Shown here: one piece after another, positions 51,435-53,450 of the stretch
How positions within the stretch are numbered: position 1 is the stretch's first letter
Layout: each line of letters begins with the position of its first letter
DNA from: an uncultured Gemmatimonadales bacterium
Lineage (GTDB): Bacteria > Gemmatimonadota > Gemmatimonadetes > Gemmatimonadales > GWC2-71-9
Direction of reading: 5' to 3'
Assembly (NCBI GenBank): GCA_963730185.1
Contig: CAVSQW010000015.1
Span: 96,001 to 160,000 of the forward strand
DNA: 64,000 bases
The notes under the pieces: generated by a model
What the model was told of the DNA's origin: nothing
The model's input: the letters and a program-made list of their open reading frames with translations, nothing else
The model's database searches: none
Made by a program: the position numbers and the translations under genes

Positions 51435-52133
51435 TTAGTGCCGACCGACCTTGACCGCCGCCTCCGCGTGTCGGAGGCAGAAGCCGACCCCGCGCACCGT
51501 TTCGACCCGGGGGTCGTTCACGTGCTTGGCGAGCTTGCGGCGGAGGTTACCGACGTGCACGTCGACGACATTGCTCTCGGGGTCGAAGTGCATGTCCCAG
51601 ACCTTCTCGAGGAGCGTCGTCCGCCGCACCACCTCTTCAGGATGGAGCATGAAGTACTCGAAGAGCTGGAACTCCTTCGCCGTCAGGTCCAGCCGCTGGC
51701 CGTTGGCCATGGCCTGGTGCCGCAGCCGGTCGAGCTCGAACGGACCGTAGCGAAGGACCTCCAGCCGGTCGGCGCCGCCGCGGCGGTGGAGCGCTCTGAG
51801 CCGGGCCAGGAGCTCCTCGAATCGGAACGGCTTGGTGAGATAGTCGTCGGCCCCGACGTCGAGCCCCCGTACGATGTCTTCCACCGAGTCCCGTGAGGTC
51901 AGCATCAGGATGGGCGTGTTCCGCCCTTCGCGGCGGAGCTCCGCGGCGACCTGAAACCCGCTCTTCTTGGGAAGGAGGACGTCGAGCAAAATGACGTCGT
52001 ACTCGTAGACGTGGGCCAGCATGGTGGCTTCCTCGCCGTCGGGGGCAACGTCGACGACGTACCCCTCTTCCTTGAGGCCCTGCTCGATGAAGCCCGCGAC
52101 TTTCCGGTCGTCTTCCACCACGAGGATCTTCAT
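51435..52133 (-). CDS. OmpR/PhoB family response regulator
   Basis: VVEDD, LLDVLLP, GADDYLTKPF, LTAKEF, NVVDVHVGNLRRKL, TVRGVG. Confidence 0.96.
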   Translation of the reverse strand: MKILVVEDDRKVAGFIEQGLKEEGYVVDVAPDGEEATMLAHVYEYDVILLDVLLPKKSGFQVAAELRREGRNTPILMLTSRDSVEDIVRGLDVGADDYLTKPFRFEELLARLRALHRRGGADRLEVLRYGPFELDRLRHQAMANGQRLDLTAKEFQLFEYFMLHPEEVVRRTTLLEKVWDMHFDPESNVVDVHVGNLRRKLAKHVNDPRVETVRGVGFCLRHAEAAVKVGRH

Positions 52134-52166
52134 GTCGTCTTCCTTCCCAAGGGTATCGTGAGGGAG

Positions 52167-52211
52167 AGTTTACTCGGTCCCCTCTAAACCCCGGGTCAAG
52201 GTTTTATGAAG
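52167..52211 (-). promoter_or_regulatory. Island promoter upstream of the response regulator (autoregulation)
   Basis: CTTCAT-N5-CTTGAC-N5-GTTTAG-N11-TAAACT. Confidence 0.7.
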
Positions 52212-52217
52212 AGTAGC

Positions 52218-53450
52218 TCATGGTCCCGCGGCCGGCAATCTCAGGGCGAACCGGCCGCCATGGCCGGGCTGGGCGACGGCGATCAGGTCGCCGCCCAGGA
52301 CGCGAGCCAACCGGCGGGACAGGGGGAGCCCCACGCCGTAGCCCACCCGGCCGGTCTCGGCCGCGTTCGCGGTGGTGTAGTAGATGTCGAAGATCCGCTC
52401 CACGTCGTCCTCGGCCACCCCGTCGCCCTGGTCGAGCACGGTGATCTCGACCCGACCGTCGACCGCCTCCGCGGTGAGCTCGATCTGGCTTCCGGCGGGT
52501 GTGTGGCGGATGGCATTGGTCAGGACGTTGACCAGGATCTGCTCCACCCGGTGAGCGTCGGTATGGCAGAGCAGATGGACGTCTCGAGGGGGCGTCCCGA
52601 AGGTGACCCGTTTTTCGTCCGCCGAGGGCGTAATTCGGATGATCGCTGTCTGGATCAGCTGGCAGCAGTCGACCACTTTGAGGATCGGCTTCAGGCGGTC
52701 CTCGTCGAGACGGTTCAGGTCGAGGAGGTCGTTCACCAGCGCCACCGCCTGCTCGGCCGCCTCGAGAATCTCGAATGCGCCCCGCGGCACCGTCTCGGGG
52801 TCCTTCCGGCGGACCAGCATCTCCGACCAGCCGTAGACCGCGGCCAGGGCGTTCCGGAGTTCGTGGTTGACCATCGCGAAGAACCGCTCGCGGGAGCGGT
52901 GGAGCTGCTGGACCTCCTCGAGGAGATGCGCGGTCCGCTCGTAGAGGCGGGCGTTTTCCACGGCGGAGGCGATGATCGCGGCGAGGAGCTGGGCCAGGTG
53001 CACGTCTTCGTCGCTGAACTCGGCGGCGTCGACCTTCTCGGTGAGGTAGAGGTCGCCCAGCACGCCCTGGCGCCCGACGATCGGAACGCCGAGGAACGAC
53101 TTCATGGGCGGGTGGTGCTTCGGGAAGCCGACCGACGCCGGGTGCCGCTGGATGTCGGGCAGCCGGACCATCTGGCCTTCCCGGATGACCAGGCCCAACA
53201 CACCGTGCCCGATGGGGAGGGTCCCGATCCGGGCGCGCTCGGCGTCGCCCAGGCCGGAAGTGGTGAAGCTGGCCAGCGTCTCGTTGTCGGGATTGAGCAG
53301 GCCGATGGCGCTGTACCGCGCGCTGAGCACTTCGCGGCCCAGGTCGGCCACCCGCTGGAGCACCCGATCAAGCCGAAGCTCGCCGACGAGCTCCGGAGTG
53401 ATGCGGACGAGCCGCTCGATGCGTTCGTGGGAAGCGCCGCCAGTCGGCAT
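52218..53450 (-). CDS. Soluble sensor histidine kinase with DosS/DevS-type GAF domain and HisKA/HATPase
   Basis: [40 protein letters not shown] H-box; [20 protein letters not shown]; no TM. Confidence 0.92.
   Translation of the reverse strand: [410 protein letters not shown]

Follow-up and report, generated by a model that had tools for sequence, protein, structure and literature searches.

A predicted DosT-like gas-sensing kinase, its adjacent OmpR-class regulator and their putative hypoxia regulon in a family of Gemmatimonadales

A stretch of 64,000 nucleotides from an uncultured Gemmatimonadales bacterium (GenBank assembly GCA_963730185.1, contig CAVSQW010000015.1, positions 96,001 to 160,000; hereafter the window) encodes a soluble sensor histidine kinase together with an adjacent response regulator of the OmpR/PhoB class. 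We consider it probable that this kinase is a DosT-like sensor of O2, NO and CO that drives a DosR-like hypoxia regulon through its CopR-like OmpR-class partner, and the pair is likely the main low-oxygen switch of the lineage. An earlier note on this DNA had proposed that a mycobacterial sensor module is coupled here to a different class of kinase and regulator, and this view held, with a DosS/DosT-type GAF, a HisKA rather than a HisKA_3 kinase and a regulator of OmpR rather than NarL type. What stands out is the defined pair, operator and predicted regulon rather than the fusion itself.

The kinase has the architecture that the earlier note had described. Its open reading frame (ORF) lies where it was reported, the quoted GAF peptide corresponds to residues 103-123 of the translation, the HELRNAL H-box with H196 is present, and no membrane helix was detected (highest 19-residue hydropathy value 1.32). 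A single GAF (Pfam GAF_2, residues 26-165, E 2e-21) is followed by a helix leading into HisKA (187-250, E 1e-13) and by HATPase_c (298-407); no GAF-B was found, and Pfam gave no HisKA_3 match at E<=1e-4. The related loci used below are the 80 best, all from Gemmatimonadota records and many of them short, giving 81 with the window. The H-box with its E-x-x-N, the N box and the G1, F and G2 boxes are all intact, with H196, N200, N308, N312, G342, G344, G372 and G374 invariant in 81/81 close relatives and D340 in 80/81. In the PDB, the kinase core matched HK853, WalK and SrrB types, the cores of DosS and DosT not being among its 35 matches, and none of the best 25 NCBIfam families reached its cut-off.

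A PDB search with the GAF returned DosT GAF-A (2vzw) as the best match (E 1e-40), followed by DosS GAF-A (E 5e-32), the next GAF appearing at 1e-10 only; at the sequence level, the likeness to DosS and DosT is far above chance. Because a fold search with the full-length model gave kinase-core matches only, the GAF was modeled alone, and this AlphaFold model (pLDDT 87) superimposed on 2vzw with a TM score of 0.88-0.91, a root-mean-square deviation of 1.6 A and 51% identity (about 42% to DosS). Residue equivalences were numbered on the PDB alignment from the chain of an E87G mutant. In this alignment to DosS GAF-A, which the earlier note had suggested as a check, H113 falls on the DosS ligand His149 (H147 in DosT), Y135 on Tyr171 (Y169 in DosT), G50 on Glu87 (Gly85 in DosT), F62 on Phe98, L85 on Ile121 and L52 on His89. 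The roles of DosS H149, Y171 and E87 and of DosT G85 are described in PMC4082495, and F98 and I121 are treated in PMC12154584.

All 81 close relatives (81/81) keep H113, Y135 and G50, and the GFP..HP.M loop, F62 and L85 are invariant or nearly so; among 11 distant homologues examined, H113 and Y135 are kept in all and G50 in 10. The E87/H89 distal network of DosS was not found in the close relatives, which carry Gly at position 50 throughout and Leu at position 52 in 80/81. Owing to the Gly at the E87 position, the predicted haem pocket is DosT-like and not DosS-like, and this residue represents the DosT state, reported to be compatible with stable O2 binding (PMC4082495). From the likeness to DosT we infer that the GAF binds haem with H113 as ligand. 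H103 of the HPAS segment (equivalent to DosS H139) was ruled out as the ligand, as the numbering places His149 at H113 of HPPM; H103 is replaced by Asp in 4/11 distant homologues and in 18/59 motif copies among representatives. Only one DosT-type GAF was found in the host genome, the assembly of which is 82% complete.

Pfam confirmed the adjoining gene as an OmpR/PhoB regulator (Response_reg and Trans_reg_C), again as the earlier note had stated. Its receiver contains an E7-D8-D9 acidic pocket, D51, T79 and K101, its output domain is a Trans_reg_C winged helix, and its PDB matches are DrrD, PrrA, RegX3 and PhoP. None of the best 25 NCBIfam families reached its cut-off, the best being the heavy-metal CopR/CusR subfamily TIGR01387 with 231.6 bits versus a cut-off of 279.2. 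A survey of homologue neighbourhoods, likewise called for in the earlier note, placed the regulator gene directly downstream of the kinase in 77/80 loci, while in the remaining three the sequence runs out no more than about 200 bp from the end of the kinase gene. The linked regulators are 76-93% identical (three are split by an apparent frameshift), and the spacer between the two ORFs, 84 bp in the window, is mostly 57-58 bp across loci. This linkage suggests phosphotransfer from H196 to D51 within the pair. Nearly all positions of the recognition helix are invariant in the 74 full-length orthologues aligned, and the helix is unlike those of the other OmpR regulators of the host, which adjoin kinases of their own.

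The kinase-regulator spacer and the promoter of a divergent universal stress protein (USP) gene share three TTCA-type half-sites with an 11-bp period, the last of which lies 11-12 bp ahead of a -10 box TAnnnT, and almost every locus has this motif in the promoter of the pair itself. Over 1.02 Mb of loci, a matrix trained without sites of the host genome scored 232 matches, compared with 5 when the sequence was reversed; USP or regulator genes account for 152 of the 232, and the remaining 80 belong to other genes or have no assignment. Among the matches listed, held-out upstream regions passed the strict cut-off for Hsp20 (8/9), multicopper oxidase (4/9), nosZ (3/8) and YgaP (1/7), and control regions did not (cysS 0/21, mscS 0/21, sulP 0/17, operon-internal ATPase 0/58). 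The host genome contains 53 matches versus 22 in the control, or 36 versus 5 with AT-rich regions excluded; 16 fall in a 43-kb island (C15:137-180 kb), and eight are in the window. Other host sites precede a NiFe hydrogenase, PFOR, a NapA-like reductase, an acyl-CoA dehydrogenase with an Fe-S oxidoreductase, OmpW with a ferritin-like gene, a HemG-like flavodoxin, PntA, an AAA_33 protein, tyrosine phenol-lyase, peptidases and a CusCBA-like operon; a few matches are without a clear downstream gene. A generic promoter and terminator scan detected no sigma-70 promoter and nothing above chance.

A palindrome with FNR-like spacing (TGAAG-N4-CTTCA) was found at the regulator promoter, partly overlapping the kinase stop codon. 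Because the remaining sites have a direct-repeat layout, we dismissed a Crp/Fnr protein as the binder. CopR, an OmpR-class regulator, binds a TGAAGATTTnnTGAAGATTT repeat in Corynebacterium glutamicum (PMC3140484) and TTCAT-N4-5-TTCAT in Synechocystis (PMC4182526). The similarity of these repeats supports an OmpR-class binder, yet some of the matches may be those of paralogues. The two Crp/Fnr proteins found in the host genome contain 0 and 1 Cys and therefore lack an FNR-type cluster; allowing for the incompleteness of the assembly, the obvious candidate for oxygen sensing is thus the kinase.

The kinase is present in 81/97 sampled genomes of the host family, which are related so that genome counts are not independent. 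Judged from these homologues, the pair is not an isolated case but belongs to a system conserved throughout a single Gemmatimonadales family. Beyond it, matches were found in 1/38 genomes of the next family and in four genomes of more distant families; none of these five has an adjacent orthologous regulator or the motif, and a phylum-wide system is not supported. The motif tracks the kinase-regulator pair across genomes. The strict pattern has 394 matches in the 81 kinase-positive genomes of the family (control 15) and 16 matches in the 16 kinase-negative ones, 11 of which have none. In the two kinase-negative genomes that have 5-6 matches, the regulator (82-83%) lies where a contig breaks off, and three other motif-bearing ones that were checked for the regulator lack it. 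In a divergent subclade of the family (43-48%), four of six loci examined keep regulator and motif, and the other two are orphan kinase paralogues. Second, orphan kinase copies without an adjacent regulator were observed at loci L196 (G023:C8) and L197 (G032:C7), one orphan copy having Asp at the H103 position, and are reminiscent of Mycobacterium tuberculosis DosT beside DosS.

The possibility that the fusion is unique was ruled out. Judged by sequence motif, the DosT-type loop occurs in 52/153 proteins examined, on other HisKA, HisKA_3 and GGDEF-type outputs; by this measure the DosT-type GAF is mobile and the GAF-HisKA fusion is one of several. Two or three tandem DosT-type GAFs are found in proteins P0006, P0008, P0122-P0125 and P0135, most with a HisKA H-box, and P0140, P0156, P0199, P0203 and P0233 combine such a GAF with GGDEF.

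For nosZ, 1 kb of upstream sequence was surveyed in 70 of the 81 other nosZ-positive genomes. TTCA-N7-TTCA is present in 16/47 system-positive versus 0/22 system-negative genomes, and a matrix score of at least 15 in 12 versus 0; one distant-family genome with a weak kinase match was set aside and has no site. The promoter of the host nosZ operon carries two exact half-sites and a good -10 (score 21.1). This clade II nos operon (C1:22920-29815, locus L115) comprises cytochrome c, nosZ, nosD and ABC genes; beside it, in divergent orientation, lies an Rrf2-like gene that has an AT-rich site. Dual control of the host operon by O2 and NO is possible.

We posit the following mechanism. By its likeness to DosT, the GAF would bind b-type haem via H113, with Y135 contacting bound O2. 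The oxy form would be off, and the deoxy, NO or CO form would autophosphorylate H196, as expected from the behavior of DosS and DosT; without a GAF-B, the signal would run directly along a long helix (residues 147-213 of the model) to the DHp domain. The phosphate would then pass to D51 of the regulator encoded next to it, which would bind the observed TTCA half-sites at the -35 position and activate transcription. The predicted targets include the pair's own gene run with the P1B ATPase and cbb3 oxidase, giving positive feedback, and, by neighbourhood and motif, dormancy-type genes (USPs, Hsp20, Acg, CBS, baeRF, HPF-like). Hydrogenase, PFOR, NapA-like, HemG-like and OmpW genes, and nosZ in part of the lineage, would be further targets.

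Several observations weigh against this interpretation. Among the matches listed, only 1/25 upstream regions of the ccoN family passed the strict cut-off, and no strong site belonging to ccoN itself lies within the window; 9/81 kinase-positive genomes are without a strict match, and the USP training sites (70/81) were picked by pattern. The nosZ site occurs in 16/47 system-positive genomes only, some of these sites being in an AT-rich context and perhaps of Rrf2 type, and that of the host missed the box filter. The genome being 82% complete, an FNR gene may have been lost from the assembly. Assignment of the TTCA repeat to this regulator is a prediction, as are haem binding, gas control, polarity and phosphotransfer, and the host has several other OmpR regulators that are 43-46% identical. 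A strong match (C16:10247) also precedes a CusCBA-like efflux operon; it may be the site of a CopR-like paralogue, or copper handling may be linked to the regulon. The operon behind it (C16:4454-10247, locus L083) encodes Big_5, OEP and CusB-type proteins.

The last point is shared by a reading in which the repeat belongs to a CopR-like paralogue or a copper/metal regulon and the pair acts chiefly on the P1B ATPase gene next to it, the wider regulon being mis-assigned. The resemblance of the motif to CopR boxes, the heavy-metal subfamily as best NCBIfam match of the regulator, though below its cut-off, and the number of CopR-like paralogues in the host would fit it. We nevertheless regard it as very unlikely, as the motif marks the promoter of the pair itself in almost every locus and tracks the pair even though the pair-negative genomes checked keep OmpR paralogues of 42-46%; the targets are mostly USP, Hsp20, CBS, PFOR and hydrogenase rather than metal genes, and the paralogues differ in their recognition helix and adjoin their own kinases. 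Loss of haem from a GAF that kept the DosT fold and senses another small ligand is an extremely improbable explanation, given the near-invariant pocket described above and the 51% identity to a haem-bound domain, although fold likeness is no proof of cofactor binding and the loop varies in distant homologues, as the Asp at H103 illustrates.

It is also conceivable, but unlikely, that haem GAF and regulon are real and that the main signal is NO, CO or the haem redox state, or that the polarity differs from that of DosT. Gas versus redox sensing is disputed for DosS itself, and the kinase is without the GAF-B that in DosS stabilizes the oxy complex and sharpens ligand discrimination (PMC4082495); nitrogen-oxide enzymes (nosZ, NapA-like, NirK-like) are moreover among the predicted targets. 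Low-oxygen sensing by a DosT-like kinase is favored by the Gly at the E87 position in 81/81 relatives, which would allow stable O2 binding, by sites in place of the -35 that fit activation of cbb3 oxidase, hydrogenase and PFOR, and by the lack of a predicted site at the probable NO reductase genes of the window.

The kinase resembles M. tuberculosis DosT (Rv2027c) and DosS/DevS (Rv3132c) in its GAF-A-type domain, proximal His, distal Tyr and solubility, and the system resembles DosT/DosS-DosR/DevR in its divergent or adjacent USP and in a predicted regulon that includes Hsp20, Acg, USP and CBS genes. DosS is a HisKA_3 kinase and DosR a NarL/LuxR-type regulator. The Gemmatimonadales kinase has one GAF instead of GAF-A and GAF-B and a HisKA/HK853-like core, and its partner is a winged-helix OmpR regulator with a direct repeat, not a palindrome, as predicted site. 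Lacking GAF-B, HisKA_3 and a NarL regulator, the pair as read from its domains is not a DosRST member, and the predicted targets extend beyond the DosR regulon to cbb3 oxidase, hydrogenase, PFOR and nosZ. HspX is listed in the hypoxia table of PMC4082495. In Streptomyces coelicolor, the DevSR-like OsdK/OsdR (SCO0203/0204) has USPs, nitroreductase, PPDK and protoporphyrinogen oxidase as predicted or bound targets (PMC5069765), and genes of these kinds sit in the Gemmatimonadales island or carry the motif; OsdR, however, is a DevR orthologue with a 16-bp DevR-like site, unlike the OmpR-class regulator and its unrelated predicted site.

CopRS of C. glutamicum and Synechocystis shares with the pair a similar TGAAG/TTCA direct-repeat site and autoregulation beside a P1B ATPase, and the CopR/CusR subfamily is the closest to the regulator by hidden Markov model, though below cut-off. 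In these CopR-type systems the sensor detects copper outside the cell and the regulon consists of one or two operons, whereas the pair has a soluble haem-type GAF and dozens of predicted sites. Two-component control of low-oxygen respiration is exerted by ResDE, SrrAB, ArcBA and FixLJ, of which ResD, SrrA and ArcA are OmpR-class regulators with HisKA kinases. ResDE, SrrAB and ArcBA are membrane-level sensors of quinone or redox state, and FixL uses a haem-PAS; to our knowledge, none of the four uses a DosT-type haem GAF. SrrB is among the PDB matches of the kinase core.

Features of the window are collected in Table 1. The cbb3 run is likely co-transcribed from the regulator promoter; its FixH-like and CcoS-like names come from reading translations and are without a family match. 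The true start of the divergent USP probably lies downstream of the predicted -10. USP genes are found in 74 of the 81 loci, genes of the P1B ATPase family in 60 (59/80 related loci plus the window), ccoN/coxI in 31 and Acg in 14. The P1B ATPase linked to the pair shows helix signatures that we take to be of P1B-5 type, and it contains no haemerythrin domain. A haemerythrin-like domain of O2/redox or iron-binding type is present in characterized P1B-5 ATPases (PMC9388753); without it, O2 control may here come from transcription. The start of nosZ is present in eight loci, and the two tested are both clade II. A neighbouring nirK was ruled out, the linked proteins of ~360 aa being two-domain multicopper oxidases that fall below the NirK cut-off and are for this reason named NirK-like only.

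Beyond the window, the stress island continues with more USPs, an erythromycin-esterase-domain protein, PRTase, CBS, S30AE/HPF-like and PPDK genes; within it, an HHH_8 and HHH_5 protein (62038-62997, +) has no detected polymerase domain. At 3869-8903 (-), a cytochrome c (weakly NorB_cytochrome_c-like), a 455-aa COX1-family subunit and a 667-aa VWA protein probably represent a cNor-type nitric oxide reductase with NorD, and the matrix scan found no predicted regulator site upstream of them. A cation-transporting P-type ATPase (Cation_ATPase_C; 9-2183, +), truncated by the window start, presumably resembles the class of the hypoxia-induced CtpF. The segment 35513-38393 (+) contains small uncharacterized ORFs, a CesT_Tir_1-domain protein, PspA/IM30 and DUF1611; DUF1611 and PspA genes recur close to the pair in a few related loci.

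Table 1. Genes, residues and predicted regulator sites of the kinase-regulator locus (window positions).
Feature	Position	Strand	Remarks
cbb3 oxidase gene run	41181-49428	-	fused ccoNO, ccoQ, ccoP, ccoG, FixH-like, DsbD_2, CcoI ATPase, CcoS-like
Fused ccoNO	47230-49428	-	above family cut-off
P1B heavy-metal ATPase	49508-51424	-	PCP motif; directly after regulator
OmpR/PhoB-class response regulator	51435-52133	-	232 aa; acceptor D51
Predicted regulator site and -10 box	52167-52211	-	before regulator gene; score 29.7; orthologous to training sites
Sensor histidine kinase	52218-53450	-	410 aa; DosT-type GAF, HisKA, HATPase_c; soluble
Phospho-acceptor His196	52863-52865	-	HisKA H-box (HELRNAL); invariant 81/81
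DosT-like GAF	52935-53387	-	residues 22-172
Distal Y135	53046-53048	-	DosS Tyr171
Predicted proximal haem ligand H113	53112-53114	-	DosS His149
G50	53301-53303	-	DosS E87/DosT G85 site
Predicted regulator site and -10 box	53513-53557	+	divergent USP; score 27.7; orthologous to training sites
Universal stress protein	53539-54456	+	two Usp domains; divergent from kinase
Predicted site	55411-55455	+	before YgaP-like, Acg, MgtC/DUF4010; score 19.5; held out
Acg nitroreductase	55720-56748		above family cut-off
MgtC/DUF4010	56756-58015		Pfam
Predicted site	58037-58081	+	before second USP; score 22.7
Second USP	58133-59056		Pfam
baeRF	59486-60673		with DUF302
Predicted site	60687-60731	-	before baeRF and DUF302; score 29.3; held out
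Predicted site	60760-60804	+	before ORF 60803-61498; score 21.1; held out
ORF	60803-61498		no Pfam match
CBS-pair protein	61491-61952		Pfam
Predicted site	61982-62026	-	before CBS-pair protein; score 31.6, best of the genome; held out
Predicted site	63037-63081	+	before Hsp20; score 18.1; held out
Hsp20	63055-63579		Pfam

The earlier note had also expected the system to be uncharacterized, and this is probably so: no description was found in the open-access literature, including the available parts of PMC11537054, PMC13287260 and PMC10581226, most subscription journals lying outside this coverage, nor did that literature yield a paper on an oxygen-sensing regulator of Gemmatimonadota. Members of this phylum make up about 2% of soil 16S sequences on average and have abundant nosZ, and cultured representatives have been suggested to survive brief anoxia by using N2O (PMC10581226). 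With somewhat less than even confidence, we propose that the pair is a family-wide master hypoxia switch replacing FNR. In this view, a dormancy regulon like that of DosR, but written in another DNA code, was re-created by placing a DosT haem module on a CopR-derived OmpR regulator, and the switch extends its control to cbb3 oxidase, hydrogenase and PFOR as well as, in many members, to clade II nosZ. Sensor, regulator and operator are now specific enough for in vitro tests without culture of the host, and the natural single-GAF, 410-aa version of DosT would allow the path from haem ligation to kinase control to be studied without GAF-B. A DosR-like gene set is apparently run here by another regulator class and DNA site, and if the master-switch proposal is true, the pair would provide the first molecular handle on the oxygen gating of an N2O sink in abundant bacteria.

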